A DNA stretch of 64,000 bases from Lachnospiraceae bacterium (GTDB lineage Bacteria; Bacillota; Clostridia; Lachnospirales; Lachnospiraceae). The position numbers and the translations under genes were made by a program. Below the pieces are notes generated by a model. It did no database searches, had not been told where the DNA came from, and saw only the letters and a list, made by a program, of their open reading frames with translations. Below are positions 4,588 to 25,477 of the stretch, one piece after another (positions within the stretch are counted from its first letter, which is position 1; every line of letters starts with the position of its first letter). Where the stretch lies: contig JAETOL010000014.1 of assembly GCA_021771755.1 (NCBI GenBank), positions 4,751-68,750 of the forward strand, in the 5' to 3' direction.

Positions 4588-5817
4588 ATGACTGAAGGAT
4601 TAAAATGGACTGTTAACCAGGTACCAAAATCCGACGACAGATTCCTGGATCTTATGTCTGAGGAAAATGTAGCAAAAGCAAATGAATTTCACAAAAGTTT
4701 CCCACAGTATACGGTAACTCCGCTTCAGAAACTTTCCGCTCTTGCTTCCTATCTTGGAGTAAAAAATATTTTCTGTAAAGATGAATCTTACCGTTTTGGC
4801 TTAAATGCGTTTAAGGTTCTGGGCGGTTCCTACGCAATGGGACGCTATATTGCAAAGGAACTTGATCGTGATATCAGCGAGCTTCCTTTCAACGTTCTTT
4901 CTTCTGAAAAATTAAGAGAAGAATTTGGTCAGGCTACTTTCTTCACTGCTACAGACGGAAACCACGGACGAGGCGTTGCATGGGCAGCAAACCGTCTTGG
5001 ACAGAAGGCTGTTGTAAGAATGCCAAAGGGAACTACCAAAACAAGATTTGACAACATCGCTAAAGAAGGCGCTACCGTTACAATCGAAGAATGTAACTAT
5101 GATGACTGTGTAAGAATGGCCGCAGCCGAGGCTGCAAAAACCGAACACGGCATCATCGTTCAGGATACCGCATGGGACGGTTATGAAGAGATTCCTTCCT
5201 GGATCATGCAGGGTTACGGCACCATGGTAAGAGAAGCTGATCAGCAGCTGAAAGAACAGGGCATTGACCGTCCGACTCATGTATTCGTTCAGGCAGGCGT
5301 TGGTTCTCTGGCAGGTGCGGTTGTAGGCTACTTTGCTAACAAATATAAAGAGAATCCTCCGGTAATGGTGGTTTGTGAAGCCGGCGCTGCTGACTGTCTC
5401 TATCGTTCCGCTATGGAAAAAACCGGTGATCTTGTAAATGTTACCGGTGATCTTCAGACAATCATGGCTGGTCTTGCATGCGGCGAAGGAAACACCATCG
5501 GATGGGATATCTTAAGAAACCACGTAACCGTATTTGCATCCTGTCCGGACTGGATGAGTGCAAAAGCAACCAGAATCTATGCAAATCCTCTGGAGAATGA
5601 TCCGCATATCGTTTCCGGCGAATCCGGTTCTGTTCCTCTCGGACTTTGCTATACCGCGCTTCATGATGCAGATGCAGCTGATCTCAAAGAAGCACTGAAA
5701 CTGGATGAAAACTCCAATGTTCTCGTAATCTCTACAGAAGGAGATACGGATCCGGTTCGCTATCGCGAAATCGTATGGGACGGACTTTACGGAACTGACA
5801 CATCATTAAGTGAATAA
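4588..5817 (+). CDS. ygeX: Diaminopropionate ammonia-lyase (PLP-dependent)
   Basis: Full-length similarity to YgeX/DpaL: FPQYTVTPLQKL, the PLP-lysine region NAFKVLGGSYA, and GVGSLAGAV. RBS is AAGGAGGG. Confidence 0.9.
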   Translation: MTEGLKWTVNQVPKSDDRFLDLMSEENVAKANEFHKSFPQYTVTPLQKLSALASYLGVKNIFCKDESYRFGLNAFKVLGGSYAMGRYIAKELDRDISELPFNVLSSEKLREEFGQATFFTATDGNHGRGVAWAANRLGQKAVVRMPKGTTKTRFDNIAKEGATVTIEECNYDDCVRMAAAEAAKTEHGIIVQDTAWDGYEEIPSWIMQGYGTMVREADQQLKEQGIDRPTHVFVQAGVGSLAGAVVGYFANKYKENPPVMVVCEAGAADCLYRSAMEKTGDLVNVTGDLQTIMAGLACGEGNTIGWDILRNHVTVFASCPDWMSAKATRIYANPLENDPHIVSGESGSVPLGLCYTALHDADAADLKEALKLDENSNVLVISTEGDTDPVRYREIVWDGLYGTDTSLSE

Positions 5818-5872
5818 CTGTAAAACAAAAACTTACTACTAATTAATCAATTTATTATGGGAGGTATTTATC

Positions 5873-7183
5873 ATGGATTACGCAAAAATTAACGAGGCCG
5901 CTCAGAATTATCTGGACGACATGGCCAGATTCTTAAGAGCAATCGTAAAAAACCCGGGAGAAAGCTGCGATGAAAAAGCACACATCGACACAATTGCAGC
6001 AGAAATGAAAAAACTGGACTTCGACGAAGTCGTAATCGATCCGCAGGGTAACGTGATCGGATACATGGGTACCGGTGATAAGATCATTGCTTATGATGCA
6101 CATATTGATACCGTTGGTATCGGAAATATCGAAAACTGGAAATTTGATCCATACGAAGGCTATGAGACAGACGAAGAAATCGGCGGACGTGGTGTGTCTG
6201 ACCAGTGCGGCGGAATCGTATCTGCTGTTTACGGCGCAAGAATCATGAAAGACCTGGACCTGATTCCGGAAGGCTGCAAGATCATGGTAGTTGGTACAGT
6301 TCAGGAAGAAGACTGTGACGGTCTCTGCTGGCAGTACATCATCAACGAAGACAAGGTTCGTCCGGAATTCGTAGTTTCCACTGAGCCTACTGACGGCGGT
6401 ATCTACAGAGGACAGCGTGGACGTATGGAAATCCGTATTGATGTCAAAGGTGTTTCCTGCCATGGTTCCGCTCCTGAGCGTGGTGACAACGCAATCTACA
6501 AAATGGCTGATATCCTTCAGGATGTTCGTGCTCTTAATGAAAATGACGACGCTGACGAGACAGAGATCAAAGGTCTTGTAAAAATGCTGAACCCGAAATA
6601 CAATCCGGACTGGGAAGAGGCAAGATTCCTTGGACGCGGTACTGTTACCTGCTCCCAGATCTTCTACACCTCCCCAAGCCGCTGTGCTGTTGCTGACTCC
6701 TGTGCAGTATCTCTTGACAGACGTATGACATTTGGTGAAACATGGGAAAGCTGTCTGGATGAGATCCGCGCTCTTCCAAGTGTTCAGAAATACGGTGATG
6801 ACGTTGTTGTTTCCATGTACAACTACGACCGTCCTTCCTACACCGGCTGCGTATATGAGATCGAGTGCTACTTCCCGACATGGGCAATTCCGAAGGATCA
6901 CAAGGTAACAAAAGCCCTTGAGGATGCTTACAAGAACCTTTACGGCGAAACAAGACTCGGAAACGCAGAGACAGAAGCTATGAGAAAGTCTCGTCCTCTT
7001 ACAGACAAATGGACCTTCTCTACTAACGGCGTTTCCATTATGGGACGTAACGGAATCCCATGTATCGGTTTCGGACCGGGTGCTGAAGCACAGGCTCATG
7101 CTCCGAACGAAAAAACATGGAAGGTTGACCTGGTAAGATGTGCTGCTGTTTACGCTGCTCTTCCGGCTTCCTACTGCAAATAA
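5873..7183 (+). CDS. ygeY: YgeY-family M20 peptidase/deacylase (selenium-metabolism-linked hydrolase)
   Basis: M20 metal-ligand motifs ([22 protein letters not shown]) and a YgeY-type N-terminus. It sits between ygeX and ygeW as in E. coli. RBS is GGGAGG. Confidence 0.88.
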
Positions 7184-7193
7184 ATCATTTTGC

Positions 7194-7217
7194 GAGGGAG
7201 CGAAGCTCCGCTCCCTC
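7194..7217 (+). terminator. Stem-loop between ygeY and ygeW (partial terminator or processing site)
   Basis: GAGGGAGCG-AAGCTC-CGCTCCCTC, a 9-bp GC-rich stem. A T-run (GATTTTTT) follows only 12 nt later. Confidence 0.4.
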
Positions 7218-7292: not shown

Positions 7293-8486
7293 ATGAAAAC
7301 ATTACAGGATTATATCGACAAATTAAACAGCCTGAACTTTAAGGAGATGTACAACAACGACTTCTTCTGGACATGGGACAAGACAGACGAGGAACTTGAG
7401 GCTGTATTTACTGTTGCTGACGCTCTTCGTTTCATGAGAGAAAACAACATTTCCACTAAAGTATTCGAGAGCGGTCTTGGAATCTCTATCTTCCGTGACA
7501 ACTCTACAAGAACACGTTTCTCTTTTGCTTCTGCATGTAACCTTCTTGGTCTTGAAGTTCAGGATCTGGATGAGAAAAAATCTCAGATCGCTCATGGCGA
7601 AACTGTTCGTGAAACTGCAAACATGGTTTCCTTTATGGCTGACGTAATCGGTATCCGTGACGATATGTACATCGGCAAAGGACATGCTTACCAGAAAGAA
7701 TTTATGGACGCTGTAACAGAAGGAAACAAAGACGGTATTCTTGAGCAGAGACCGACTCTTGTAAACCTTCAGTGTGACGTTGACCATCCGACACAGTGTA
7801 TGGCTGATATGCTTCACATCATCCATGAATTTGGCGGTGTTGAGAACCTGAAAGGCAAAAAACTTGCCATGACATGGGCTTACTCTCCTTCCTACGGAAA
7901 ACCACTTTCCGTTCCTCAGGGTGTAATCGGTCTTATGACACGTTTCGGTATGGACGTTGTTCTTGCTCATCCGGAAGGATATGATGTAATGCCTGAGATC
8001 GAAGAGATCGCAAAGAAAAATGCAGAAGCTACCGGCGGTTCCTTCACAAAGACAAACAGCATGGAAGAAGCATTCAAGGATGCTGATATCGTTTATCCGA
8101 AGAGCTGGGCTCCTTTCGCAGCTATGGAAAAACGTACAAACCTTTACGGCGAAGGCGACTTTGACGGAATCGACAAACTGGAGAAAGAACTTCTTGCACA
8201 GAACGCACAGCACAAAGACTGGGCTTGTACAGAAGAACTCATGAAAACAACAAAAGACGGAAAAGCACTCTATCTGCACTGCCTGCCAGCTGACATCACA
8301 GGTGTAAGCTGCGAGACAGGTGAGGTTGATGCAAGCGTATTTGACCGCTACAGAATCCCGCTTTACAAAGAAGCAAGCTTTAAACCATATGTGATCGCTG
8401 CAATGATCATGCTGTCCAAATTTGAGAAACCTCAGGATGTTCTCAAAAAACTGGAAGTAAAAGCAGCACCAAGAATCCTTAAATAA
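7293..8486 (+). CDS. ygeW: Knotted carbamoyltransferase YgeW
   Basis: Carbamoyl-phosphate motif STRTR (DNSTRTRFSF), HCLP motif (LYLHCLPA), and the YgeW-type N-terminus with FFWTWDK. Confidence 0.9.
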   Translation: MKTLQDYIDKLNSLNFKEMYNNDFFWTWDKTDEELEAVFTVADALRFMRENNISTKVFESGLGISIFRDNSTRTRFSFASACNLLGLEVQDLDEKKSQIAHGETVRETANMVSFMADVIGIRDDMYIGKGHAYQKEFMDAVTEGNKDGILEQRPTLVNLQCDVDHPTQCMADMLHIIHEFGGVENLKGKKLAMTWAYSPSYGKPLSVPQGVIGLMTRFGMDVVLAHPEGYDVMPEIEEIAKKNAEATGGSFTKTNSMEEAFKDADIVYPKSWAPFAAMEKRTNLYGEGDFDGIDKLEKELLAQNAQHKDWACTEELMKTTKDGKALYLHCLPADITGVSCETGEVDASVFDRYRIPLYKEASFKPYVIAAMIMLSKFEKPQDVLKKLEVKAAPRILK

Positions 8487-8568
8487 ATTCTTCTAAAAGA
8501 GTGACAGGGCCTGTGGAGCATTGTTCTGCAAGGTCCTTCTCTTTTCTTATCATTCAGGAGGTTTTTAC

Positions 8569-9513
8569 ATGTATAAGCGTAAACGAATCGTAATTGCACT
8601 GGGAGGAAACGCATTGGGGAACACTCTCCCGGAACAGATGGTAGCTGTAAAAACAACAGCAAAGGCTCTCTGTGACCTGATCGAAGATGGTCATCAGGTA
8701 GTAGTTGTCCACGGAAACGGACCACAGGTAGGTATGATCAACAATGCTATGGCAGCCCTTTCCCGTGAGGACGCCAATCAGCCTAACACTCCCCTCTCCG
8801 TATGCGTGGCAATGAGCCAGGCCTATATCGGATATGATCTTCAGAACGCACTCCGCGAGGAACTTCGCAAAAGAGGATTTGTGCGTACTCCGGTGGTTAC
8901 CGTAGTCACACAGGTTCGTGTAGATCCGGAAGATCCTGCTTTCCAGAATCCCAGCAAGCCTATCGGACATTTCATGACAAAAGAAGAGGCAGAACATGCA
9001 GAAAAAGCATACGGATACATCACAAAAGAAGATGCCGGCCGTGGCTACCGTCGTGTCGTTGCTTCTCCTAAGCCTGTGGAGATCGTAGAACAGGATGCCA
9101 TTAACAGCCTTGTGGATGCCAATAAGATCGTCATCTGCTGCGGAGGCGGCGGAATCCCGGTAACCCTTCAGGGAGATCACTTAAAAGGCGCTTCTGCCGT
9201 GATCGATAAAGATTTTGCCAGCTGTCTTCTTGCCAAAGAGCTGGATGCAGATATGCTGATCATCCTGACCGCAGTAGAAAAAGTTGCCATCAACTTTGGT
9301 AAAGAAAACGAAGAATGGCTCAGTGACCTTACTGTAGAGGAAGCTAAGAAATATGTAGACGAAGGACATTTCGCTGCAGGATCCATGCTTCCGAAGGTTC
9401 AGGCAGCTATGGACTTCGCTTCTTCCGGAAAAGGACGTACCGCTATGATCACACTTCTGGAAAAAGCAAAAGACGGAATCCAGGGAAAAACAGGAACCAC
9501 CATTCATCTGTAA
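8569..9513 (+). CDS. arcC: Carbamate kinase
   Basis: MYKRKRIVIALGGNALG..., VVVHGNGPQVG and CCGGGGIPV are carbamate kinase signatures. I chose the start at ATG 8569 after CAGGAGG. This is the YqeA equivalent of the E. coli cluster. Confidence 0.9.
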   Translation: MYKRKRIVIALGGNALGNTLPEQMVAVKTTAKALCDLIEDGHQVVVVHGNGPQVGMINNAMAALSREDANQPNTPLSVCVAMSQAYIGYDLQNALREELRKRGFVRTPVVTVVTQVRVDPEDPAFQNPSKPIGHFMTKEEAEHAEKAYGYITKEDAGRGYRRVVASPKPVEIVEQDAINSLVDANKIVICCGGGGIPVTLQGDHLKGASAVIDKDFASCLLAKELDADMLIILTAVEKVAINFGKENEEWLSDLTVEEAKKYVDEGHFAAGSMLPKVQAAMDFASSGKGRTAMITLLEKAKDGIQGKTGTTIHL

Positions 9514-9533
9514 AAAAAGCCAGAAATAAAAAA

Positions 9534-9590
9534 ACTCCCGGCAGATATTCCAGCAGACACATCTGCATGTCATTGGAATATGCCGGGAGT
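9534..9590. terminator. Bidirectional terminator (arcC on + strand, BMC operon on - strand)
   Basis: Long stem ACTCCCGGCAGATATTCCA / TGGAATATGCCGGGAGT with an inner GCAGA-CACA-TCTGC hairpin. An A-run lies upstream and CTTTGTTTATTT downstream. Confidence 0.65.
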
Positions 9591-9596
9591 CTTTGT

Positions 9597-9890
9597 TTAT
9601 TTGTTGAAATGATGCTTTTCTGCTTCCTCTTCTACCAGACGTACCGTCTCCTCTGAAGGATTGGAAATTACCGCTGCTGCAATCACCTCACAGGGAGGAT
9701 TGCCCTTGACACTCTCCACAGCAGCTGTCACCGCGGAAACATCACCGCTTAAAAATACAGTGGCATGACCGCCGCATTTTGTATTCCAGGTACGAAAAGC
9801 TACATCAGATGTCTTCAGCATCTGATCGATCACCAGGATGGCATTGCTGCTTCCCAGCACCTCTACCAGTCCAAATGCTCCATATCTCAT
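9597..9890 (-). CDS. BMC-H type microcompartment shell protein (single BMC domain)
   Basis: AFGLVEVLGSSNAILVIDQMLKTSDV...GGHATVFLSGDVSAVTAAVESV aligns by eye to PduA/EutM, including the D-x-x-x-K edge motif. RBS is GTGAGGAAA. Confidence 0.85.
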   Translation of the reverse strand: MRYGAFGLVEVLGSSNAILVIDQMLKTSDVAFRTWNTKCGGHATVFLSGDVSAVTAAVESVKGNPPCEVIAAAVISNPSEETVRLVEEEAEKHHFNK

Positions 9891-9915
9891 AACGATTTCC
9901 TCACTTTATCCAAAA

Positions 9916-10215
9916 TTATTTGTTAATGGTCATTGCAAGCGCAGTCTCCGTATCCTCTGTCGGAGAAGCGATGATGGTGTGACTGACGATCTTTCCAAGA
10001 GGTTTCGCTGTCTCAAGGGCCACCTCCATAGCAGCATTCACATCAGAAACAGAACCTCTTATTTTTACACAGGCACCACTTTTCAGACGGTTACGCTCCA
10101 CACTCTGGATTTTTACATTTGCTGCCTTGGATGCAGCGTCAAGAGCTACAAAGCAGGCAACCAGATTATCCAGTTCAAATACACCGACTGCCATGCCGTT
10201 ATAATTTTCAGTCAT
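9916..10215 (-). CDS. BMC-H type microcompartment shell protein (single BMC domain), paralog 2
   Basis: MAVGVFELDNLVACFVALDAASKAANV...SGACVKIRGSVSDVNAAMEVA aligns to PduA/EutM. ATG 10215 is preceded by GGGAGG; the GTG at 10227 lies inside that RBS. Confidence 0.85.
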   Translation of the reverse strand: MTENYNGMAVGVFELDNLVACFVALDAASKAANVKIQSVERNRLKSGACVKIRGSVSDVNAAMEVALETAKPLGKIVSHTIIASPTEDTETALAMTINK

Positions 10216-10268
10216 AATACCTCCCACTTTTCTTACCAGAAAATTTGTCTATTGTTGTATTTACTACC

Positions 10269-10297
10269 AGTATACCTGTTTTTTGCTAAAAACACAA
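10269..10297 (-). promoter_or_regulatory. Candidate promoter of the two-gene BMC operon
   Basis: On the minus strand: TTGTGT - 17 nt - TATACT, about 55 nt upstream of ATG 10215. Confidence 0.35.
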
Positions 10298-10463
10298 GTA
10301 AAATCAACAAAAAAAAAAGAAACATCATGTGGTTTTTATTTGTTTTTTCTTGTGGACTGGTGTGGTTATTTTTTTGTATAAATTACAAAGCTTTTTTCAG
10401 GATTCTTGTTTTTTCATTTATATGGTATATAATAAAAAGAGAGTTTAGCAGAGGTGTGAATAT

Positions 10464-11837
10464 ATGAACGTACATCAGACGGACTTTTCCAGAGGAAATG
10501 TATACCGAAACATTCTGGAGGTAGCTGTACCCATGACGCTGGCACAGCTTCTGAACCTCCTTTATAATATCGTAGACCGAATCTATATCGGACGGATTCC
10601 CCAGGCAGGTACAACAGCCCTGACCGGTGTAGGCATCTGTTTTCCCGTGATCACACTGATCACAGCATTTACCTATCTTTTCGGCAACGGAGGCAGTCCT
10701 CTCTGTTCCATGGAACGGGGACGGGGAAACAGCCGCGAGGCAGAGCGGCTTATGGGTAATACTTTTTCCATGCTCCTCCTTACCGGGATTGTTTTGATGC
10801 TTCTTGGATATCTTTTTTACCGCCCGGTTCTCTATGCTTTTGGTGCAAGTGACATTACCTACCCTTATGCAAGAGACTATATCCGCATTTATCTCCTTGG
10901 CACTCTTTTTGTGATGATCACTCTGGGAATGAATCCCTTTATCAACAGCCAGGGATTTGGAAACATGGGAATGCTGACCATCCTGATCGGAGCAGTCCTG
11001 AATATCATTCTGGATCCCCTGTTTATCTTTGTATTCCATATGGGCGTAAAGGGAGCAGCCACCGCAACCGTTCTGTCTCAGATGTGTTCTGCTCTCTGGG
11101 TTCTTAAATTCCTTACCGGAAAAAAGGCTGTCCTGCACCTGAAAAAAGAGGCCATGAAATTAAAATGGAGCCGTGTAAAAAGCATTATGTCTCTTGGAGT
11201 CTCCGGTTTTATGATGGCCTTTACCAACAGTCTGGTACAGATTTTCTGCAACGCTACCCTGCAGACCTGGGGAGGGGATCTTTATGTAGGAATCATGACC
11301 GTGCTGAATTCCATCCGTGAGATCACGACCACTCCCGTTAACGGACTTACAGGCGGCGCTTCACCGGTTATGAGCTTTAATTACGGAGAAAAAGCCTATT
11401 TCCGGGTAAAAAAAGCAATCGGTTTTGTCACCCTGCTCTGTGTTTCCTATACGTTTGCCATATGGGGAATCCTGAAATTATTCCCAGAATTTTTTATCCG
11501 GATTTTCAACAGTGAACCGGATCTGATCGCCAAAGGCACCCCTGCTCTTCATATCTACTTTTTTGGTTTTTGCTTTATGGCTTTACAGTTTGCCGGTCAA
11601 AGTGTATTCGTAGCTCTTGGAAAAGCCAGATATGCTACCTTTTTCTCTATTTTCCGCAAGGTAATCATTGTGGTCCCCCTTACCGTACTGCTGCCCCATA
11701 TTGGAAATCTGGGCGTAGACGGCGTATTCTGGGCGGAACCTGTCTCCAATCTGATCGGAGGCTGTGCCTGCTTTCTGACCATGCTGCTGACCGTTCTTCC
11801 GGAACTGAATCAGAAAAGCAGATCCAGGGCAGACTGA
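10464..11837 (+). CDS. MATE family efflux transporter
   Basis: 12-TM profile and MATE N-terminal signature (ILEVAVPMTLAQLLNLLYNIVDRIYIG). An extended -10 element TGGTATATAAT lies about 35 nt upstream. Confidence 0.85.
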   Translation: MNVHQTDFSRGNVYRNILEVAVPMTLAQLLNLLYNIVDRIYIGRIPQAGTTALTGVGICFPVITLITAFTYLFGNGGSPLCSMERGRGNSREAERLMGNTFSMLLLTGIVLMLLGYLFYRPVLYAFGASDITYPYARDYIRIYLLGTLFVMITLGMNPFINSQGFGNMGMLTILIGAVLNIILDPLFIFVFHMGVKGAATATVLSQMCSALWVLKFLTGKKAVLHLKKEAMKLKWSRVKSIMSLGVSGFMMAFTNSLVQIFCNATLQTWGGDLYVGIMTVLNSIREITTTPVNGLTGGASPVMSFNYGEKAYFRVKKAIGFVTLLCVSYTFAIWGILKLFPEFFIRIFNSEPDLIAKGTPALHIYFFGFCFMALQFAGQSVFVALGKARYATFFSIFRKVIIVVPLTVLLPHIGNLGVDGVFWAEPVSNLIGGCACFLTMLLTVLPELNQKSRSRAD

Positions 11838-13207: not shown

Positions 13208-13233
13208 TTCTGCCTCCATACATCAGCTATAAT

Positions 13234-17724: not shown

Positions 17725-17789
17725 CTCTTCACCTTCTTTTCTTTTTTTCTGCATGGATCCTGACAAGCCATCTGAGTACAGCTTTTCTC

Positions 17790-17947: not shown

Positions 17948-17985
17948 AGAAATATTTCCATTGATTTTTGTGAATTTTTATTAAT

Positions 17986-18450
17986 TTATTTTGAAATAAT
18001 TCCTCTGGTATCTGCAATCACATTCCGCGGGCATTTTACTGCGCAGTTTCCGCAGGCAAGGCAAAGCTCGTCATTGATCAGCGCCACATTATCTGTGACT
18101 GCGACCGCATCTGCCGGACAGTTCTTTGCACAGATTCCACAGCCGATACAGCTGACATCACAGGCCTTTCTCGCTGCAGCCCCCTTATCCTTATTAGAAC
18201 ATTTTACAAGGAACGGGTTATCTGTAAGATGGATGTGAATAATATCCTGAGGACATGCTTTTACGCAAAGGCCGCAGCCGATGCACTTGCTTTCGTCAAT
18301 TTCAGCCACTCCATATGCATTATAGAAAATGGCGTCCTTTCTGCAGGCCTCCATACAGGAGGAACAGCTCATACAGCCATAGGAACAGCTCTGGCAGCGT
18401 TCCCCGCCGTTACATGCAACATAAGCCGTCTTTTTTGGAAATCTTGCCAT
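17986..18450 (-). CDS. Poly-ferredoxin (multiple 4Fe-4S cluster motifs, RnfB C-terminus-like)
   Basis: Three canonical CxxCxxCxxxCP motifs (CIGCGLCVKACP, CIGCGICAKNCP, CLACGNCAVKCP) plus an N-terminal Cys-rich stretch. The start lies 3 nt after the xdhD stop. Confidence 0.8.
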   Translation of the reverse strand: MARFPKKTAYVACNGGERCQSCSYGCMSCSSCMEACRKDAIFYNAYGVAEIDESKCIGCGLCVKACPQDIIHIHLTDNPFLVKCSNKDKGAAARKACDVSCIGCGICAKNCPADAVAVTDNVALINDELCLACGNCAVKCPRNVIADTRGIISK

Positions 18451-18453
18451 GGA

Positions 18454-21018
18454 TCATTCCCCCTTCTTTTTTCTTTCATATGGTGTATTTGCAAGAGGAA
18501 GACTGGTACGATACTGTCCGTCATATTTATAATAAGCTCCTGCAATTGCCGGCGCTGTAGGAATGGAGGTGATCTCACCGATTCCGATGGCGCCCTCTGC
18601 CACCTTCAGTCCAGCCTTTTCCACAATGATGCTTTCTACTTCCGGTGCCTGGTTCGCACGGAAGAGACCAAGTGTACCATATTTGTTCTGAGGCTTGCAG
18701 TCCTTCAGACCATACTCCTCTGTAAGAGCAAAGCCTGCCGACATTACCACGCCGCCCTCGATCTGTCCTTCCACAGAAAGAGGATTCACCGCACGTCCCA
18801 CATCATGGGCCGCAACAATTTTTTCAATCTTTCCGTTTTTATCCAGGATACATACCTGCGTTGCATATCCGTAAGCCACATGGGAAACCGGATTTTTCAC
18901 ATCTGATCCCATGGCATCTGTTTTTGCCAGATATTCTCCCAGATACTCTTTGCCTTCCAGCTCCTGAAGACTCTTTTCTTTCAGGTCCTCGCGAAGCTTC
19001 TCACATGCCCGGCGGCATGCCTCACCGGTAACCAGTGTCTGGCGGGAACCGGAGGTGGTACCGGAATCCGGTGCATTATAGGTATTGGAAGCATCGTAGT
19101 AGATCTGATCCCGTTTCAGTCCGAGCTGTTCTGTCACCATCTGTACCAGAACCGTTCCCAGTCCCTGACCAATACAGGAGGCTCCGGAATGGATCTCCAC
19201 TCTTCCATCGTGGACATACAGTTTACAGCGTCCCCAGTCCGGAAGACCTACGCCTACACCTGCATTTTTCATGGCGCAGGCAATACCCACATATGGATGG
19301 CTCTCGTAAGCCTCTTTTACTGCTTCCAGAGTTTCTGCAAGTCCTGTGGAATCATCTACCAGCTGACCGTTTGGAAGTTCCTGACCCGGGCGGATCGCAT
19401 TGCGATATCGGATCTCCCATGGAGAGATTCCCACCTTCTCCGCCATTTTGGTCAGCAGCATCTCTACTCCGAAGCAGGTCTGAGTCACACCAAATCCACG
19501 GAAGGCACCTGCCGGCGGATTGTTTGTATAATATGCTTTTCCGTCAATATCAAAGTTCTGATAATTGTAAGGACCGGAGGCATGTGTGCAGGCTCTCTGA
19601 AGCACAGGTCCTCCAAGAGACGCATACGCACCCGTATCTGCGATAACCGAAGCTTTCACACCCCGGATGATTCCGTTTTCATCACAGCCCATGGTAAATT
19701 CCATATCCATCGGATGACGCTTGGGATGGATCAGAATACTTTCCTCTCTGGTAAGTTTTACCTTGACCGGACGCTTGGTAAGATAAGCGATCATTCCGGC
19801 ATGATGCTGAACGGTCACGTCTTCTTTTCCGCCAAAACCGCCGCCTACCAGCTTATTGCGGACCTTTACCTTTTCTGCCGGAAGTCCCAGAAGCGCCATA
19901 CACTCATGCTGTGTATCATAAACGCCCTGGTCTGTAGAATAAATGATCACACCATCTTCGCCGTCCGGTTTCGCCACCGCACACTCCGGCTCAAGAAAAG
20001 CATGTTCTGTCCACGGAGTCTGGAATTTTTCCGTAAGAACGTATTTGGACTCTGCGATCGCTTTGTCCGCATCACCACGATGTACATGCCAGTGGGCAAG
20101 AAGATTTCCGTCTCCATGTACCAGCGGCGCATCTTCTTTCATAGCTTCATAGGGGTCACGGACCATCGGAAGCTCTTCATATTCTACCTTGATAAGCTTC
20201 TTTGCCTTTTCTACGATCTCCTGTGTCTCTGCCGCAACAAGAGCAATGGCATCTCCCAGATAATGGGTGATCTTGCCAACAGGGATCAGTCCATCCCAGT
20301 CCTGTTTCAGATGACCTACCTTTACGCTTCCCGGAATATCTTCTGCAGTAAATACACCAACCACTCCCGGAAGAGCCTTTGCCTTCTCTGTATCAATGGA
20401 TTTTACAAGTGCTCTTGGATAAGCGGAACGAAGGGCGCTTCCGTAGATCATGCCCTCTTCATAAACATCATCCGGATACTGTCCGTATCCCAGAACCTTT
20501 TCACGAACATCCACTCTGGGCACACGGTCTCCCAGCTTCCAGGTATACTCTTTTTTCTCAGGAAGCCCTTCCCGTTTATATTTTGCAGCAAGCAGGATAC
20601 CGTCGATGATCTTTTTGTATCCTGTACAGCGGCAGATATTATTTCGGATCGCGTGCGCCGCCTGAGCACGGGTAGGATCCGGATTCTGGTCAATCAGACC
20701 TTTGGCGCTGATGACCATACCCGGGATACAGAAGCCGCACTGCACTGCTCCGGCCTCTCCGAACGCACGGTCATAAATCTCTTTTTCTTCTTCTGAAAAA
20801 CCTTCCACAGTTAGTATGTGCCGGCCTTCCAGCATGGAAAGAGACGGAATACAGGCCTTTTGCGGTTTCCCGTCGATCAGTACATGACAGGTTCCGCAGG
20901 CGCCCTCGCTGCAGCCGTCTTTTACTGAGGTAAGATGGAGTCTGTCACGAAGAAAACGGAGAAGCTTCATATCATGCTCTTCCTGATATTCTTTTCCATT
21001 TACATAAAAACTGAACAT
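18454..21018 (-). CDS. xdhD: XdhD-like selenium-dependent molybdenum hydroxylase (fused 2Fe-2S + molybdopterin-binding domains)
   Basis: N-terminal 2Fe-2S motifs (CSEGACGTCHV, CGFCIPG...CRCTGY) are fused to an XDH large-subunit body (VGGGFGGKED, IGIGEITSIPTAPAIA). At 854 aa it fits the XdhD/YgfN-type fusion. Confidence 0.85.
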   Translation of the reverse strand: MFSFYVNGKEYQEEHDMKLLRFLRDRLHLTSVKDGCSEGACGTCHVLIDGKPQKACIPSLSMLEGRHILTVEGFSEEEKEIYDRAFGEAGAVQCGFCIPGMVISAKGLIDQNPDPTRAQAAHAIRNNICRCTGYKKIIDGILLAAKYKREGLPEKKEYTWKLGDRVPRVDVREKVLGYGQYPDDVYEEGMIYGSALRSAYPRALVKSIDTEKAKALPGVVGVFTAEDIPGSVKVGHLKQDWDGLIPVGKITHYLGDAIALVAAETQEIVEKAKKLIKVEYEELPMVRDPYEAMKEDAPLVHGDGNLLAHWHVHRGDADKAIAESKYVLTEKFQTPWTEHAFLEPECAVAKPDGEDGVIIYSTDQGVYDTQHECMALLGLPAEKVKVRNKLVGGGFGGKEDVTVQHHAGMIAYLTKRPVKVKLTREESILIHPKRHPMDMEFTMGCDENGIIRGVKASVIADTGAYASLGGPVLQRACTHASGPYNYQNFDIDGKAYYTNNPPAGAFRGFGVTQTCFGVEMLLTKMAEKVGISPWEIRYRNAIRPGQELPNGQLVDDSTGLAETLEAVKEAYESHPYVGIACAMKNAGVGVGLPDWGRCKLYVHDGRVEIHSGASCIGQGLGTVLVQMVTEQLGLKRDQIYYDASNTYNAPDSGTTSGSRQTLVTGEACRRACEKLREDLKEKSLQELEGKEYLGEYLAKTDAMGSDVKNPVSHVAYGYATQVCILDKNGKIEKIVAAHDVGRAVNPLSVEGQIEGGVVMSAGFALTEEYGLKDCKPQNKYGTLGLFRANQAPEVESIIVEKAGLKVAEGAIGIGEITSIPTAPAIAGAYYKYDGQYRTSLPLANTPYERKKKGE

Positions 21019-21108: not shown

Positions 21109-24108
21109 TTATTTGTATAACAGATAGGAATAGTCATTGATCACAGCCAGAATCAGATCGCGGATTCCTGCCGGAACAGCATCTGCCGGATCGTCAGCCT
21201 TGCAGTCTGTCATATTTCCAAGGAATCTTACTTTACATTCCTTTGTTTCTGCATTCAGTACGGCAAAACCATCATTTGTACTGTCATCCATATCCTCAGC
21301 CTTTGCAAACAATGTAAATTTGTCTTTATAAGGAGCGCTTGCATAAGGACAGAAGGTCTTACAGTTGCCACATTCGTTGCACATGTAGTCTACATGGATC
21401 ACCTGTGCCATTTCCATTCCAGGAACTTTGATGGAAATATTCGCTCTGTTTGGACATACATCGACACAGTTCTCACATACCTTACTGCAGGAAAGACATC
21501 TCTGGCTTTCTTTTTCAGCTTCTTTTTCTTCCTTCAGGATACCTTTCTTTTCGTAACATTCTGTCTCTGCACCGGTAACTGCTCTGTCGGAAACGACAGT
21601 AGCTCCAAGAATTGCCTTTGCAACAAGCTGTGCATCACGAATTGCTTCAACGATGGTAGCAGCACCTTTCGCACCGTCACCTGCCAGGTATACATCTTTT
21701 ACACTGGTTTCCAGAGTTTCCTGATTCAGTTTTGCTTTTCCTCTTTCGTTTACATTGATGCCGTTTGCCTCGTAGAACTCTGTAGGAACCTTTTCTCCAA
21801 CTGCTACGATCACTGTATCTGCCGGTACTTCAACGATCTCGTCTGTCTCTGTTACACCAGCTCTTCCGGAAGCGTCCATAGCGCCAAGCTCCATCTTCTT
21901 GCAGATCAGAGTTCCGTTTTCCAGGCTTACCGGAGAAAGAAGCTCTCTGAATTCCACTCCATCTTCCAGTACCTCCAGAAGCTCTTCTTCTGCTGCAGGC
22001 ATATAACGTTTGGTTCTTCTGTATACCAGATAAACATGCTCTACGCCTTCGGTGCGTTTTGCTGCTCTTGCAGTATCCATAGCTGTATTACCGCCGCCGA
22101 TTACAACTACGTTCTTTCCAAGATCAACCTTACCGTTGTTTGCATTAAAGTCTGCCAGGAATTTCAGTGCATTTACTGTTTCTCCTTTTTCCAGTCTCAG
22201 GGTACCCGGTTTATTTGCACCTGTTGCAAGGATCACTGCATCGTATCCTTCTGCCTTGAGATCTGCTACAGAAGCTACCTCTGTATTGGTACGAATCTCC
22301 ACACCCATTTTTTCAATAAAGGAAATATCTTTGTCAATGGCATCTGTGGAAATACGGAATCCCGGGATCACATAGCGGATCACGCCGCCCAGTTTAGCCT
22401 CTTTTTCAAAAATTGTAACAGAAGCGCCTGCTCTTGCAAGGAAATAAGCTGCTGCAATACCTGCAGGGCCGCCGCCTACGATGGCAACCTTCTTACCATT
22501 GCTCTCTCCTGCATGGATCTCACCGATCACTTCATCATAGCCTTTTTCTGCTGCGAGAAGCTTGGTTCCACGAATGTTGACAGATTCTTCATAGAAGTTT
22601 CTGGTACATTTATACATACAGTTATGTGCGCAAAGAGTTCCTGTAATAAATGGAAGGGCGTTTTTGTCAAGGATCACACGAAGTGCTTCCGCATATTTCT
22701 CTTCTCCTGCAAGAGCAATATACTCCGGAATATCCTGATGGATCGGACAGCCTTCCTGACATGGAGCAAAGTAGCAGTTCAGAAGCGGAACTGTCTCATC
22801 GCTCTTTCTGTTTGGAAGCGGTTTGATATTCTTTACATGATGCGGATCTTTTTTCGCATCCTCTGCAAGTTTTTCCAGAGCCTCTACATCAATGCCTGTC
22901 CATGGCTTCACGCCGTCAGCCATAACTTTTTCTGCCATCTGGCTGAATCTCTGATATCCGCCGGTCTTGAGGATTGTTGTGGCAACTGTTACTGGCCATA
23001 CACCGCAGCCTACGATTCTGTCAATGTTATAGAAGTCTGCACCACCGGAATAAGCAATACGCAGTTTTCCGTCAAATTCTCTGGAAAGCATGGCTGCCAG
23101 AGAAATAGAAAGCGGGAACAGAGATTTTCCGGACATATACATCTCTTCGCTTGGAAGCTCATTTCTGGTCACGTCTACCGGGAAGGTGTTTGTGATCTTA
23201 ACGCCAAAGGCAAGGTTCAGCTCATCTGCCAGAGCCTGAAGACGTTTGAACATCGGAATGGCATCCTTATACTGAAGGTCATCCTTAAAGTGGAAATCAC
23301 CAAACATCATGTAATCGTAGCCCATGTCATCCATGGTCTTTCTTGCAAATTCATAGCCAAGAAGAGTCGGATTACATTTAATAAAGGTGTTCAGGTGTTT
23401 TTCTTTAAAAAGATGATTTGCAATACTCTCGATCTCATTTGGAGGACATCCATGAAGTGTAGAGATCGTAGCGGAATTACAGATTTCTGAAGGAATTGCT
23501 TCAATATCTTCTTTTGTCACCTTTTCAAATTTATCTACATGATCAAGAAGCCACTGTTTACATTCTTTGAATACTTCTGTATCTTTTGCCTCTTTCATGC
23601 TGTCGATAAAGGTGTCGATCTTTTTCTCTTTGATACCTGCAAGGTCGTATCCTACAGAAATGTTAAACTGGAATCCATCTGTTCCGCCAAGGCCGAATTC
23701 CTTTGCCATAACATGAAGGATGAACCATGCCTTGATATACTCTCCCATAGCCTGCGGAACAAAAAGTTCTGTAGACCACTCACAGTTATAACACTCGTCT
23801 TCTGCCAGGATACACGGTCTGCTGATACATGCAGCAAGCTCGTCTCCATCCATTTTCTGAACTGTTTTCAGCTCAAAGAATCTTGCTCCTGCATAATAGG
23901 AAGCAACGATATTCTGTGCCAGCTGGGTGTTCGGGCCTGCAGCAGGTCCGATCGGTGTTTCCAGATTTCTTCCAAAAATCTCCATAGCCTTGGAAGTATC
24001 TGCCTGATATGCTCTGTGCACACCAAATACAGTATTTTTTTCTTTATGTTCAGTTAAAACCCAGTCCATTAACTGTCCAAAGGACATACAGGTCATTTTT
24101 TCACTCAT
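21109..24108 (-). CDS. ygfK: YgfK-family flavin/Fe-S oxidoreductase (annotated putative selenate reductase subunit; DPD/GltD-like)
   Basis: 999 aa. N-terminal DHOD/DPD-like TIM barrel, central GltD-like dinucleotide sites (GGGPAGIAAAYFLARAG, GGGNTAMD) and C-terminal Cys clusters (CENCVDVCPNRA, CNECGNCKTFCP). Confidence 0.9.
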   Translation of the reverse strand: MSEKMTCMSFGQLMDWVLTEHKEKNTVFGVHRAYQADTSKAMEIFGRNLETPIGPAAGPNTQLAQNIVASYYAGARFFELKTVQKMDGDELAACISRPCILAEDECYNCEWSTELFVPQAMGEYIKAWFILHVMAKEFGLGGTDGFQFNISVGYDLAGIKEKKIDTFIDSMKEAKDTEVFKECKQWLLDHVDKFEKVTKEDIEAIPSEICNSATISTLHGCPPNEIESIANHLFKEKHLNTFIKCNPTLLGYEFARKTMDDMGYDYMMFGDFHFKDDLQYKDAIPMFKRLQALADELNLAFGVKITNTFPVDVTRNELPSEEMYMSGKSLFPLSISLAAMLSREFDGKLRIAYSGGADFYNIDRIVGCGVWPVTVATTILKTGGYQRFSQMAEKVMADGVKPWTGIDVEALEKLAEDAKKDPHHVKNIKPLPNRKSDETVPLLNCYFAPCQEGCPIHQDIPEYIALAGEEKYAEALRVILDKNALPFITGTLCAHNCMYKCTRNFYEESVNIRGTKLLAAEKGYDEVIGEIHAGESNGKKVAIVGGGPAGIAAAYFLARAGASVTIFEKEAKLGGVIRYVIPGFRISTDAIDKDISFIEKMGVEIRTNTEVASVADLKAEGYDAVILATGANKPGTLRLEKGETVNALKFLADFNANNGKVDLGKNVVVIGGGNTAMDTARAAKRTEGVEHVYLVYRRTKRYMPAAEEELLEVLEDGVEFRELLSPVSLENGTLICKKMELGAMDASGRAGVTETDEIVEVPADTVIVAVGEKVPTEFYEANGINVNERGKAKLNQETLETSVKDVYLAGDGAKGAATIVEAIRDAQLVAKAILGATVVSDRAVTGAETECYEKKGILKEEKEAEKESQRCLSCSKVCENCVDVCPNRANISIKVPGMEMAQVIHVDYMCNECGNCKTFCPYASAPYKDKFTLFAKAEDMDDSTNDGFAVLNAETKECKVRFLGNMTDCKADDPADAVPAGIRDLILAVINDYSYLLYK

Positions 24109-24139
24109 TTATTTTTCCTCCCGATTGATATTCTGGCAA

Positions 24140-25477
24140 TTATTTGCCTGCATTGATGTCATCAGCAAGCTCTTTTGCGGCCTGACGGCAGTCTGCCATC
24201 ATCTTCGCTTCATCACAGACAAGAACTTCACGGTCTTTCATAAGAACCTTTCCGTTACATACCGTAGTCTGTACCATTGCACCGGTAGTACCGAAAAGAA
24301 GATGTCCGTTTACGTTATCTGCACGCATTGGTGTCAGAGGATCATAATCAACAACGATCACATCTGCTGCCGCACCATTCTTCAGAACGCCCAGTTCTTT
24401 CTTGAAGTAACGGTTTGCAATTTTTGCATTTCCTTCAAACAGCATCTGCGGAACCTCGCCCCATGCAGTGTTTGGATCGCAAAGATGATGTTTGTGAAGA
24501 ACATTGGCAACCTTCCAGGACTCTGTCATATCATGGGTGTATCCGTCTGTGCCAAGGCCGGTAAGGATTCCCTTATGAACCAGTGCCATGGTCGGAGGAC
24601 ATCCGCAGGCGTTACCCATATTAGATTCCGGATTATGTACCACCATGGTATCTGTATCCTTGATCAGATCCATTTCATGTTCATTGATATAGATGCAGTG
24701 GCCAAGAAGAGTTTTTGGTCCAAGGATGTTCCAGTCATACAGACGGTCAACGATCCGTTTGCTGTGCTCTTTCAGGCACTGATGCAGATCATAGATACCT
24801 TCCGCAACATGGATGTGATAGCCTACACCTTCCGGTTTCAGCTCATTGCACAGAGCCATAGTTTCGTCAGAAATAGTAAAGGATGCATGCATACCCATCA
24901 TTCCTGCGATCATATCGCTGTCATCTGCAAGAGCATGTTTGATAAAGTTTACGTTTTCCATTACGGATTCTTTTGATTTCTCCATGCCGTCACGATCTGA
25001 GATCTCATAGCAGAGACAGGTACGGATTCCCAGATCCTTTGCAGCTTCCTCAATAGCAAACAGGGAGCCTGTGATATGTCCAAAGCTTGCATGATGGTCA
25101 AATACGGTTGTCACACCGTTTTTGATAGAGTCAATGTATGTGGCATATGCAGACAGTTTTGTCTGTTCCAGTGTCAGATGACGGTCGATGGTCCACCACT
25201 GTCCATCAAGGATATCCAGGAAGCCCTGCGGATTGTAGCCCTTGATGCTCAGTCCTCTGGCAAAAGCGCTGTAAATGTGCTCATGAGCGTTAATATACGC
25301 AGGCATGATAACTCCACCCTTAGCATCAATAAATTCCGCATCCGGGTAAGCAGCTTTTACAGCCTCAAGCTCTCCTACCATAACAATGGTGCTGCCATCC
25401 ATAGCAACTGCACCATTTTCAATAAAAGGATTGGATGCATCTCTTGTGATCATTCTGCCGTTACCAATAATAAGCAT
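24140..25477 (-). CDS. ssnA: SsnA-family amidohydrolase
   Basis: Amidohydrolase metal motif NAHEH, HASFT, GTDG, and an SsnA-type N-terminus (LIIGNGRMITRD). RBS is GGAGGG. Confidence 0.9.
   Translation of the reverse strand: MLIIGNGRMITRDASNPFIENGAVAMDGSTIVMVGELEAVKAAYPDAEFIDAKGGVIMPAYINAHEHIYSAFARGLSIKGYNPQGFLDILDGQWWTIDRHLTLEQTKLSAYATYIDSIKNGVTTVFDHHASFGHITGSLFAIEEAAKDLGIRTCLCYEISDRDGMEKSKESVMENVNFIKHALADDSDMIAGMMGMHASFTISDETMALCNELKPEGVGYHIHVAEGIYDLHQCLKEHSKRIVDRLYDWNILGPKTLLGHCIYINEHEMDLIKDTDTMVVHNPESNMGNACGCPPTMALVHKGILTGLGTDGYTHDMTESWKVANVLHKHHLCDPNTAWGEVPQMLFEGNAKIANRYFKKELGVLKNGAAADVIVVDYDPLTPMRADNVNGHLLFGTTGAMVQTTVCNGKVLMKDREVLVCDEAKMMADCRQAAKELADDINAGK

Follow-up and report, generated by a model that had tools for sequence, protein, structure and literature searches.

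A Blautia gene island probably encoding the 2,8-dioxopurine pathway of anaerobic uric acid breakdown, with an adjoining polyferredoxin gene and a structured xdhA leader

The ~21-kb island described here very probably (we put the probability at roughly 85%, judging from gene families and their arrangement) represents the Blautia form of the 2,8-dioxopurine, or reductive uricolytic, pathway, together with a classical xanthine dehydrogenase and genes for the maturation of a Se-Mo cofactor. The system itself, which converts uric acid to pyruvate, ammonia and ATP without oxygen, is already known and was recently solved elsewhere. What is new in the Blautia copy is a polyferredoxin gene and a leader upstream of xdhA, both previously undescribed; in addition, one expected enzyme is missing.

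The pathway has been assigned enzyme by enzyme in E. coli and Clostridium sporogenes (bioRxiv 10.1101/2025.05.19.654654; 10.1101/2025.04.24.650524). In the same studies it was found to be reductive, to yield ATP via YgeW and carbamate kinase, to end with the conversion of 2,3-diaminopropionate to pyruvate and ammonia by YgeX, and to require selenium, SelD and YqeB, the selenium cofactor trait comprising YqeB, YqeC and SelD. The original prediction for this DNA had proposed a reductive, ATP-yielding purine breakdown with just this end step and a dependence on selenium, and all three points are now experimentally established in those two organisms; its remark that most steps were not firmly assigned has been superseded by these two 2025 studies.

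Genes of the island and their predicted roles

The island genes are real and intact. All those named in the original prediction are present in the window (the whole 64-kb stretch of DNA that was analysed) where it had placed them. Gene identity was judged with curated family models, by comparing the bit score with the curated cut-off (the two values are given in this order below); the matches span nearly the entire model in each case, and their E-values (~1e-60 to 0) put them far beyond chance. YgeX, YgeY, YgeW, carbamate kinase, SsnA, YgfK, XdhABC, YqeB and YqeC all score above cut-off, whereas the MocA domain does not. Identity to the E. coli orthologues, where aligned by tblastn, is 32–66%. 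The enzyme roles given here are transferred by family membership from the studies on E. coli and C. sporogenes, and are to be read as predictions.

The left-hand operon lies on the forward strand. Its promoter region (4440–4587) contains an AT-rich 16-mer, CTAAAAATTTTTGTAT (4477–4492), a promoter-like site, TTGCAA-16-TATGAT (4499–4526), and an AAGGAGG ribosome-binding site. It is followed by ygeX (4588–5817; TIGR03528, 611 vs 532 bits; 49% identical to E. coli YgeX), for the PLP-dependent 2,3-diaminopropionate ammonia-lyase of the last step; ygeY (5873–7183; TIGR03526, 657 vs 321 bits; 62% identity), for an M20 hydrolase cleaving one ureido group; ygeW (7293–8486; TIGR03316, 801 vs 500 bits; 66% identity), for a knotted carbamoyltransferase that turns a ureido group into carbamoyl phosphate; and the carbamate kinase gene yqeA/arcC (8521–9513; TIGR00746, 390 vs 358 bits; 63% identical to YqeA), whose product makes ATP from carbamoyl phosphate and ADP. 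The true start of the kinase is probably the ATG at 8569, given that the family match begins at residue 21 and that gene calls in relatives are 314 aa long. Beyond arcC, hairpins at 9519–9594 (17-nt arms at 9530–9546 and 9578–9594) separate it from convergent BMC-domain genes and, by pattern match, likely form a bidirectional terminator.

At the other end, on the reverse strand, ssnA (24140–25477; NF005540, 671 vs 444 bits; 32% identical to E. coli SsnA) encodes the amidohydrolase opening the six-membered ring, and ygfK (21109–24108; TIGR03315, 1402 vs 835 bits, full length; 43% identity) encodes a flavo-Fe-S NADPH:2,8-dioxopurine oxidoreductase (DOPOR), responsible for dearomatisation. The ssnA promoter region (25478–25714, reverse strand) harbors the second copy of CTAAAAATTTTTGTAT, at 25615–25630, as well as the terminator of the upstream cob operon (25660–25695 plus a T run). 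The 16-mer occurs just twice in the 64 kb and is found upstream of ygeX, with 0–1 mismatch, in six Blautia species; we infer that it is an AT-rich promoter element common to both outer operons.

The central, reverse-strand genes comprise xdhA (15448–17724; NF043082, 1226 vs 780 bits; 47% identical to E. coli XdhA), xdhB (14547–15431; NF043083, 443 vs 310 bits) and xdhC (14056–14550; NF043084, 249 vs 217 bits), for the Mo, FAD and 2Fe-2S subunits of a xanthine dehydrogenase converting hypoxanthine and xanthine to urate. The start of xdhA at 17724 follows the gene calls (758 aa), the open reading frame itself reaching 17766. Next come yqeB (13234–14052; TIGR03309, 354 vs 220 bits), a short form of the Se-dependent Mo-cofactor maturation gene whose product aligns to residues 268–524 of the 541-aa E. 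coli YqeB (tblastn), and yqeC::mocA (11858–13219), in which the Se-cofactor marker YqeC (TIGR03172, 200 vs 73 bits) is joined to a MocA-like Moco cytidylyltransferase domain (TIGR03310, 132 vs 186 bits; Pfam NTP_transf_3, 124 bits). The two parts form a single gene in the window and at locus L008, and separate genes at loci L014, L025 and L026.

According to this scheme, XdhABC would convert hypoxanthine and xanthine to urate, from which an FAD-less 2Fe-2S::Mo fusion enzyme (18454–21018), matured by YqeB and YqeC::MocA plus a SelD encoded elsewhere, would take off the C6 oxygen to give 2,8-dioxopurine. YgfK would reduce this product with NADPH as the reductant, and SsnA would open the six-membered ring, yielding ureidomethyl-hydantoin. 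To reach 2,3-diureidopropionate, the five-membered ring would then have to be opened by a hydantoinase encoded outside the window. YgeW would phosphorolyse one ureido group, carbamate kinase turning the carbamoyl phosphate into ATP, YgeY would hydrolyse the second, and YgeX would release pyruvate and 2 NH3. The earlier idea that YgfK and XdhD both reduce the ring needs adjustment: in the solved pathway, YgfK alone dearomatises 2,8-dioxopurine, while the Mo fusion instead removes the C6 oxygen of urate.

The source genome belongs to a Blautia species (99% to UMGS412) that is common in the human gut. Gene order around yqeB is identical in six Blautia species, and the order around the fusion gene is retained in two more distant genomes as well; all compared islands occupy the same chromosomal site, adjoining cob genes. 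An identical SsnA occurs in 436 indexed blocks of the assembly collection, the places shown being ENA metagenome assemblies. In a published screen, urate was fully consumed by Blautia producta and B. obeum.

The 2Fe-2S::Mo fusion and its putative electron donor

The fusion gene (18454–21018, reverse strand; TIGR03311, 1327 vs 830 bits) encodes neither an FAD domain nor an FAD subunit, an architecture matching that of the D. gigas aldehyde oxidoreductase. Its length and its place beside ygfK and ssnA agree with those described for the 2,8-dioxopurine dehydrogenase (DOPDH) of C. sporogenes. By this analogy, the protein would be a DOPDH of the XdhAC type, catalyzing the two-electron reduction of urate to 2,8-dioxopurine. 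The name xdhD given to it in the original prediction is not tenable: the protein reaches just 240 bits against TIGR03313, the family of the E. coli enzyme (cut-off 1102), shares 26.5% identity with E. coli XdhD, is devoid of the E606-bearing loop and has no YgfM partner.

Could the fusion be, instead, a true second Se-dependent xanthine dehydrogenase, oxidizing xanthine, hypoxanthine or thiopurines rather than reducing urate? The NCBIfam model is indeed named 'selenium-dependent xanthine dehydrogenase' and has equivalog status, and a study on Blautia wexlerae credits this gene, annotated there as 'sd-XDH', with the conversion of 6-mercaptopurine to 6-thioxanthine, on correlation and inhibitor data only. 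We deem this improbable, however, as a full XdhABC, FAD subunit included, is encoded alongside and the fusion gene adjoins ygfK and ssnA, for enzymes whose substrate is 2,8-dioxopurine. Moreover, the purified C. sporogenes enzyme, of the same architecture and neighborhood, interconverts urate and 2,8-dioxopurine, and in that organism genetics make a separate XDH the xanthine dehydrogenase.

A candidate electron donor for the fusion enzyme is encoded next to it. Starting 3 nt past the stop of the fusion gene, a reverse-strand gene (17986–18450) specifies a 154-aa polyferredoxin with four CxxCxxCxxxC ([4Fe-4S]) motifs, similar to the C-terminal part of RnfB. The two genes remain neighbors even in lineages in which the fusion is only 61–70% and the ferredoxin 52–66% identical. 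NAD(P)H does not serve as electron donor for the C. sporogenes XdhAC, and a review lists the donor of that enzyme among the open questions. The polyferredoxin may supply low-potential electrons to the fusion enzyme, and pyruvate:ferredoxin oxidoreductase, whose gene lies 8 kb away (33401–37072), could recharge it using the pathway's own product, pyruvate. Three island variants (L014, L025 and L026) that are identical in other respects lack the ferredoxin gene, which is therefore not indispensable.

Comparison with known loci and the missing hydantoinase

The island resembles the C. sporogenes locus, as far as families, architecture and gene order as described for that locus allow, in that an FAD-less 2Fe-2S::Mo fusion adjoins ygfK and ssnA, in the presence of the YgeW/carbamate kinase, YgeY and YgeX families and of the YqeB/YqeC selenium cofactor trait, and in having a separate XDH that converts other purines to urate. 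Unlike its counterpart, the Blautia cluster has XdhABC and yqeB/yqeC/mocA embedded in it, a polyferredoxin coupled to the fusion, an internal pair of BMC-domain genes with a MATE gene, and a structured xdhA leader, and it has no hyuA or pbuX permease gene in or near it.

The E. coli K-12 ygeV–uacT region (b2866–b2888) shares counterparts of xdhABC, ygeW, ygeX, ygeY, yqeA, yqeB, yqeC, mocA, ygfK and ssnA, that of mocA being matched by family models only. However, ten genes of the E. coli neighborhood lack a counterpart in the 64 kb (tblastn, E ≤ 1e-3): hyuA, ygeV (a sigma-54 regulator), xanQ, guaD, ghxQ, uacT and ygfS gave zero hits, while ygfM, ygfT and xdhD have no orthologues, their matches being paralogous XDH-family subunits, YgfK and the ferredoxin. 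The urate-reducing enzymes also differ, that of Blautia falling in TIGR03311 and that of E. coli in TIGR03313, and the former lacks both the YgfM FAD subunit and the E606-bearing insertion. Furthermore, the Blautia YqeB is without the N-terminal half, and YqeC and MocA are fused. In contrast to E. coli, the electron supply in Blautia is probably ferredoxin rather than NADH.

The island had been called complete, which it is not: no HyuA homologue was detected in the 64 kb (tblastn, E ≤ 1e-3), in another ~10 kb to the left or across 146 related loci (1.39 Mb), and the window holds no purine/urate permease, regulator or selD. HyuA is genetically required in both C. sporogenes and E. coli (bioRxiv 10.1101/2025.05.19.654654; 10.1101/2025.04.24.650524); hence the pathway has a gap here, unless another part of the genome supplies hyuA or an analogue. 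One may ask, then, whether the island takes urate only to ureidomethyl-hydantoin or earlier, serving mainly as an electron sink, with the intermediate excreted (possibly via the MATE pump) and ygeX-ygeY-ygeW-arcC acting on a different ureido or diamino compound. Besides the absence of hyuA at every locus examined and the efflux gene within the island, this would fit with the C. sporogenes mutants that excreted intermediates yet went on consuming much urate, and with the co-localisation of SsnA and HyuA in many organisms reported by Li et al., although many is not all. We nevertheless consider such a truncation unlikely. In every Blautia variant, the four downstream genes have stayed intact and in close linkage with the upstream ones, which argues for flux between them; the MATE gene is missing from two variants; and Liu et al. 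took 4/7 genes as enough for a urate-consuming phenotype. With ~84 kb of a multi-megabase genome covered, hyuA may simply sit elsewhere.

The xdhA leader and the BMC-domain genes

Between the ferredoxin gene and xdhA, the reverse-strand segment 17725–17985 appears once in the window and comprises a promoter-like site, an upstream hairpin, a conserved single-stranded block (GRAARUAGCAUGGUUC, invariant), a long irregular hairpin (core 17794–17880; about −30 kcal/mol) and a U-rich tract. Its fold has a z-score of −5.85, and covariation is seen in the middle stem. The leader is retained in all Blautia-type islands, ferredoxin-less ones included, and each of the 108 true metagenomic copies is followed directly by xdhA. 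We regard it as a candidate attenuator or riboswitch, whose terminator would gate read-through from the ferredoxin gene into xdhABC-yqeB-yqeC::mocA.

Leader-terminator attenuators and riboswitches of catabolic operons, such as purine riboswitches or those of the PyrR type, have the same order of promoter, leader hairpin, single-stranded block, terminator hairpin and ribosome-binding site, and the xdhA leader likewise always precedes one and the same gene. The apical motif GUCCUGAGGGG resembles the PyrR loop consensus, UCCAGAGAGG. Unlike those systems, the xdhA leader shows no aptamer-like multi-stem junction, and the 300-nt region matches no Rfam family, including PyrR, Moco, purine and NMT1, even at E ≤ 10.

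A real, if somewhat less favored, possibility is that the element has no sensing role and is a mere intrinsic terminator of the ssnA-ygfK-fusion(-ferredoxin) unit, to which the strong hairpin with its U-rich tract and the lack of an Rfam match would be suited; stem covariation, too, is expected of any terminator. Yet neither the 16 nt preceding the hairpin nor the 5′ side of the upper stem (GUYCWGAGGGGAACA) varies between lineages, even though the intergenic sequence around them has diverged, and several lineages carry upstream segments complementary to the hairpin's 5′ half. Furthermore, no promoter-like site separates the hairpin from the start of xdhA, so that transcription of this gene must traverse the hairpin.

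The original prediction had missed this leader and the ferredoxin, as well as a pair of reverse-strand BMC-domain genes. Protein a (97 aa; 9597–9890; Pfam PF00936, 63.4 vs 24.5 bits) is divergent, single-domain and BMC-H-like, is 86–100% conserved in Blautia loci, and scores far under the cut-offs of the named shell-protein families; its Cys (TKCGGH) presumably occupies the position of the PduA pore motif. Protein b (103 aa, 99 aa being called in most assemblies; 9916–10227; PF00936, 63.6 bits) is 88–99% conserved in Blautia loci. The window has no room for a pentamer gene. The Xau/BUF microcompartment loci, predicted to serve anaerobic xanthine utilisation (Ravcheev et al. 2019, PMC6620236), likewise combine BMC-domain genes with anaerobic purine catabolism in Firmicutes. 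They encode another enzyme set (a xanthinase/formiminoglycine-type route), however, whereas the Blautia island has none of the Xau enzymes and just two divergent BMC-H-like genes.

A 209-aa forward-strand ORF (9838–10467) was dismissed as spurious: it has no family match and an odd composition, is only 52–89% conserved in relatives, where its frame breaks, and overlaps the two BMC-domain ORFs, which are 86–100% conserved. Divergent from the pair is a forward-strand gene for a MATE-family efflux transporter (10464–11837; TIGR00797, 195 vs 147 bits). It is accessory: two island variants lack it, and a third has the BMC-MATE block in inverted orientation. In a B. wexlerae-like genome, the BMC pair lies directly 3′ of mocA, in the same orientation.

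Gene content and pathway steps of the island

The genes were checked by a six-frame ORF listing and by curated family models, whose bit scores were read against each curated cut-off. All the genes named in the original prediction were found where it had placed them, and each scored above its family cut-off; the only shortfall was the MocA domain (132 bits against 186), though it gave 124 bits with the Pfam model NTP_transf_3. Matches cover nearly the whole of the family models, so the island genes look intact.

Four genes form a single operon on the + strand, with all four products above cut-off: ygeX (4588-5817; TIGR03528, 611 bits against 532), ygeY (5873-7183; 657 against 321), ygeW (7293-8486; 801 against 500) and the carbamate kinase gene (8521-9513; 390 against 358). 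The remaining genes lie on the - strand. There, ssnA (24140-25477; NF005540, 671 bits against 444) and ygfK (21109-24108; TIGR03315, 1402 against 835) are adjacent, 31 nt apart, and are followed by a gene for a 2Fe-2S::Mo fusion protein (18454-21018; TIGR03311, 1327 against 830). Further on come xdhA (15448-17766; NF043082, 1226 against 780), xdhB (14547-15431; NF043083, 443 against 310) and xdhC (14056-14550; NF043084, 249 against 217), so that the Mo, FAD and 2Fe-2S subunits of XdhABC all exceed their equivalog cut-offs. Immediately 3' of this trio are the selenium-cofactor markers yqeB (13234-14052; TIGR03309, 354 against 220) and yqeC, the latter fused to mocA (11858-13219; YqeC part TIGR03172, 200 against 73). 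YqeC and MocA make up one 453-aa protein in the window and in the uncultured Blautia sp. UMGS412; three related species encode the two separately, so the fusion is a recent one.

The pathway to which these families belong was worked out by two studies in 2025 (bioRxiv 10.1101/2025.05.19.654654 and 10.1101/2025.04.24.650524). According to these, a separate xanthine dehydrogenase (XDH) converts hypoxanthine and xanthine to urate. Urate is reduced to 2,8-dioxopurine by XdhD-YgfM with NADH in E. coli and, in C. sporogenes, by the FAD-less XdhAC (2,8-dioxopurine dehydrogenase, DOPDH), which is selenium- and SelD-dependent and does not use NAD(P)H. YgfK (DOPOR) then reduces 2,8-dioxopurine with NADPH, HyuA opens ureidomethyl-hydantoin to give 2,3-diureidopropionate, YgeW and carbamate kinase turn one ureido group into ATP, YgeY hydrolyzes the other, and YgeX carries out the last step, yielding pyruvate and ammonia.

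The general logic originally proposed, a reductive and ATP-yielding breakdown of the purine ring, agrees with these enzyme steps. The accompanying statement that most steps lacked a firm assignment has been overtaken by the same two studies, in which the role given to XdhD, joining YgfK in reduction of the ring, is not the one found. The island belongs to a known, recently characterized system, which is reported to occur widely among gut bacteria. Urate was consumed by other Blautia strains, B. producta and B. obeum, and the genus was already represented among the consumers in a 2022-2023 screen. The published work that we found does not mention four features: the lack of hyuA within the cluster or close to it, a polyferredoxin gene coupled to the fusion gene, a pair of BMC-domain genes with or without a MATE gene, and a conserved structured leader upstream of xdhA. 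The Blautia-type island may constitute a variant of the pathway in its own right, set apart by three linked features: its leader RNA, its ferredoxin and its hydantoin step.

The description of the island as complete finds no support in the window, where hyuA is missing. Searches with E. coli HyuA (tblastn) gave no match in the 64-kb window (E≤1e-3) or in 146 related loci totalling 1.39 Mb, and there was no amidohydrolase call in about 10 kb further to the left of the window. SsnA was the sole amidohydrolase-family match among the large and mid-sized window ORFs scanned. Another part of the genome may carry hyuA; the hydantoin could also be opened by a non-HyuA enzyme, or the step bypassed. The DUF1015 protein encoded beside ygeX (3135-4538) was considered as a stand-in hydantoinase and set aside, having no PDB relative by sequence and, in its favor, only synteny in close relatives. 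Also missing are a nucleobase permease, a YgeV-type regulator and GuaD, none of which was found in the window by tblastn and family scans, and SelD, which was not among the NCBIfam or Pfam matches of the window ORFs scanned. Given the absence of hyuA in and around Blautia-type islands, surveys that count genes to estimate urate capacity should check whether the pathway runs to completion or an intermediate is excreted.

The YqeB protein of the window shares 99% identity with its counterpart in the uncultured Blautia sp. UMGS412, and the figure is 80-82% for B. glucerasea and B. caecimuris; judged from sequence, the window is from a Blautia species. In the assembly collection, 436 blocks index exactly this SsnA protein, the places listed being ENA metagenome assemblies, and human-gut contigs predominate among the listed matches of a metagenome scan for the xdhA leader. 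Together, these occurrences point to a common human-gut commensal as the host. Gut bacteria remove about one-third of human urate, which makes the pathway medically topical and, with the exact SsnA found in so many blocks, this Blautia may account for a sizeable share of urate removal in people.

Six Blautia genomes have an identical gene order around yqeB, and the order of the island genes hardly differs in two others that are more distant, with fusion proteins 85% and 78% identical to that of the window. In all these islands the chromosomal position is the same, just downstream of cobalamin lower-ligand genes. In the window, genes for a cobC-like phosphatase, a split cobU, cobS and cobT (25715-29103, - strand) lie immediately upstream of ssnA, separated from it by a terminator hairpin (25660-25695).

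The fusion enzyme and its candidate electron donor

The interest of the locus lies mainly in a candidate electron donor and a leader RNA. The fusion protein had been called XdhD, but it is not an XdhD orthologue. On the XdhD model TIGR03313 it scored 240 bits against a cut-off of 1102, and its identity to E. coli XdhD (26.5%) was lower than that of both other Mo subunits in the window. No orthologue of YgfM was found in the island (tblastn with the E. coli protein, E≤1e-3), and the 11-residue insertion carrying E606 was absent from all three Mo subunits of the window. We did not use E606 as a marker of DOPDH, because only the E. coli type has the insertion that holds this residue, which is hence uninformative for the clostridial type.

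Like the aldehyde oxidoreductase of D. gigas, the fusion protein consists of two 2Fe-2S domains and Mo domains, with no FAD. Compared by description, it also resembles C. sporogenes XdhAC/DOPDH, whose Mo domains span residues 307-839, in architecture, in length and in its place beside ygfK and ssnA. By this analogy we infer that the protein is a putative DOPDH that would convert urate to 2,8-dioxopurine. A database search with the fusion protein returned only close relatives, mostly named Blautia, at identities of at least 77% among the matches listed.

The assignment bears on a 2023 study (PMC10439275), in which a gene annotated "selenium-dependent XDH" in B. wexlerae was blamed for inactivation of 6-mercaptopurine and failure of thiopurine drugs. 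The "selenium-dependent xanthine dehydrogenase" of a B. wexlerae-like genome (GCA_964240875.1) is the orthologue of the window fusion, and the NCBI name of that protein refers to Ruminococcus sp. 5_1_39BFAA. By analogy with the 2025 enzymology, the annotated enzyme is more likely a urate/2,8-dioxopurine enzyme and the neighboring XdhABC the likelier 6-mercaptopurine oxidase. If the fusion is indeed a urate reductase and XdhABC the true XDH, the thiopurine interpretation needs revisiting.

Starting only 3 nt past the stop codon of the fusion gene is a gene for a 154-aa polyferredoxin (17986-18450, - strand) with four CxxCxxCxxxC motifs, similar to the polyferredoxin portion at the C terminus of RnfB. 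The gap between the two genes is still within about 25 nt in metagenomic loci whose fusion proteins and ferredoxins are only 61-70% and 52-66% identical, respectively, so that the adjacency is kept across diverged lineages. The ferredoxin gene is absent from three variants of the island.

According to a recent review, the physiological donor of XdhAC, "and possibly an accessory protein", had yet to be discovered; reduced ferredoxin was suggested as the donor by Li et al. The polyferredoxin gene therefore provides a concrete candidate for the donor to this first enzyme of the pathway. We put the probability that the polyferredoxin is the physiological reductant of DOPDH at about 50%. A pyruvate:ferredoxin oxidoreductase is encoded 8 kb from the island (33401-37072, - strand; TIGR02176, 1804 bits) and could use the pathway's own pyruvate to supply the reduced ferredoxin that the first step would need.

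The leader of xdhA

The region of 261 nt that separates the ferredoxin gene from xdhA (17725-17985, - strand; gene calls start xdhA at 17724, inside an ORF that extends to 17766) folds far better than shuffled controls (z = -5.85). The core of this leader reads AAGAAAGUAGCAUGGUUC-GGAGCCGGAC-AAUC-GUCCUGAGGGGAACA...GUCCGGCUUUUUCUAUAU, an invariant single-stranded block followed by a long irregular hairpin (about -30 kcal/mol) and then by a U-rich tract. It is kept in every Blautia-type island, including those devoid of the ferredoxin gene, in which the leader lies between the fusion gene and xdhA.

When 19 nt of the invariant block were used as the probe in a metagenome scan, at least 120 loci were returned. 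Among the matches listed, the full element was present in 108 of 120 loci, invariably directly upstream of xdhA (108 of 108), and occurred in about 25 distinct variants. The middle stem covaries, with A-U, G-C and C-G pairs all seen at single positions; the 5' side of the upper stem and the 5' flank are invariant across variants. A covariance-model search detected no second copy in the window. Against Rfam 15, the leader gave no match at the gathering thresholds, nor was there any at E≤1 over 22 kb, and a search at E≤10 over the 300-nt leader region returned only noise.

There is no promoter-like site between the hairpin and the start of xdhA; expression of xdhABC-yqeB-yqeC::mocA must therefore read through the hairpin. 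We read the element as a candidate conditional terminator, either an attenuator or a riboswitch. A serious rival is that the hairpin and its U-rich tract are a plain terminator. As for the candidate conditional terminator, that it would sense a ligand, as a hitherto undescribed riboswitch for a purine, urate/2,8-dioxopurine or a cofactor, seems rather unlikely. A leader peptide was considered, as an AUG starts the invariant block, and rejected: the length of the ORF ranges between 6 and over 30 codons, there are no synonymous changes, and one lineage has no AUG. As a possible new regulatory RNA, the leader is a clean candidate.

Outer promoters, BMC-domain proteins and neighboring genes

The 16-mer CTAAAAATTTTTGTAT occurs exactly twice in the 64 kb, both times in promoter regions of the outer operons: upstream of ygeX (4477-4492) and upstream of ssnA (25615-25630). 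The two promoters also have in common the boxes CTATTG(C/A)AA and TATGAT(A). Upstream of ygeX, the 16-mer is present with 0-1 mismatch in six species; upstream of ssnA, it was not found at up to 2 mismatches in the two more distant genomes, which have in common with the window an AT-rich ACAAAAATTT block in that region. The 16-mer could act either as an UP element or as an operator. We did not adopt a shared operator as the settled reading, given that an UP element would account equally well for the A/T-tract nature of the sequence and for its location immediately 5' of the -35 site. In both cases, the 16-mer suggests that the two outer operons would be expressed together.

A 209-aa ORF on the + strand (9838-10467) was dismissed as spurious, having no family, an implausible composition, poor conservation and frame breaks. 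The - strand at this place encodes two BMC-domain proteins of 97 and 103 aa (9597-10227), each scoring 63 bits on PF00936. They are 86-100% conserved and occur in most Blautia variants. In the B. wexlerae-like genome the pair lies directly 3' of mocA, in the same orientation and with no MATE gene; Ca. B. intestinavium has the BMC-MATE block in inverted orientation, still inside the island; a third variant lacks the pair.

Both proteins score far below every named shell-protein family. In one of them (BMC-a), a cysteine presumably occupies the position of the PduA pore motif. A database search with the other (BMC-b) returned only close relatives, mostly named Blautia, at identities of at least 86% among the matches listed. 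Searches of the window with both proteins (tblastn) revealed no further BMC paralogues, and no unassigned gap in the window is big enough for a pentamer gene except 37073-37713, whose ORF has no Pfam match. Hence the combination that defines a bacterial-microcompartment locus, BMC-H and BMC-P with encapsulated signature enzymes, is not what the island holds. A microcompartment of the Xau/BUF type was rejected, as its enzyme set differs (PMC6620236).

Some further genes of the window deserve mention. A second Mo-hydroxylase trio lies on the - strand in the 53901-59339 region, with FAD (58527-59339), 2Fe-2S (58051-58530) and Mo (55766-58054) subunits, all below every equivalog cut-off; the Mo subunit scored 626 bits against 780 on the XdhA model and is the window's best match to E. 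coli XdhD (33.5%). It is followed by a gene for a DUF6077 protein (54736-55764) and then by one for a 273-aa protein belonging to no family.

Divergent from ygeX is an operon (638-4538, - strand) encoding the DUF1015 protein, a CitMHS_2 transporter and a cytidylate-kinase-like protein, and beyond it is a gene for a YheO-like PAS/HTH regulator (104-604, + strand). The DUF1015 gene adjoins ygeX also in close Blautia relatives. Finally, a T-box leader (61478-61747, - strand; 130 bits, gathering score 93) precedes a 2-isopropylmalate synthase gene (59602-61401), and tRNA genes are located at 48332-48403 and 61883-61956.
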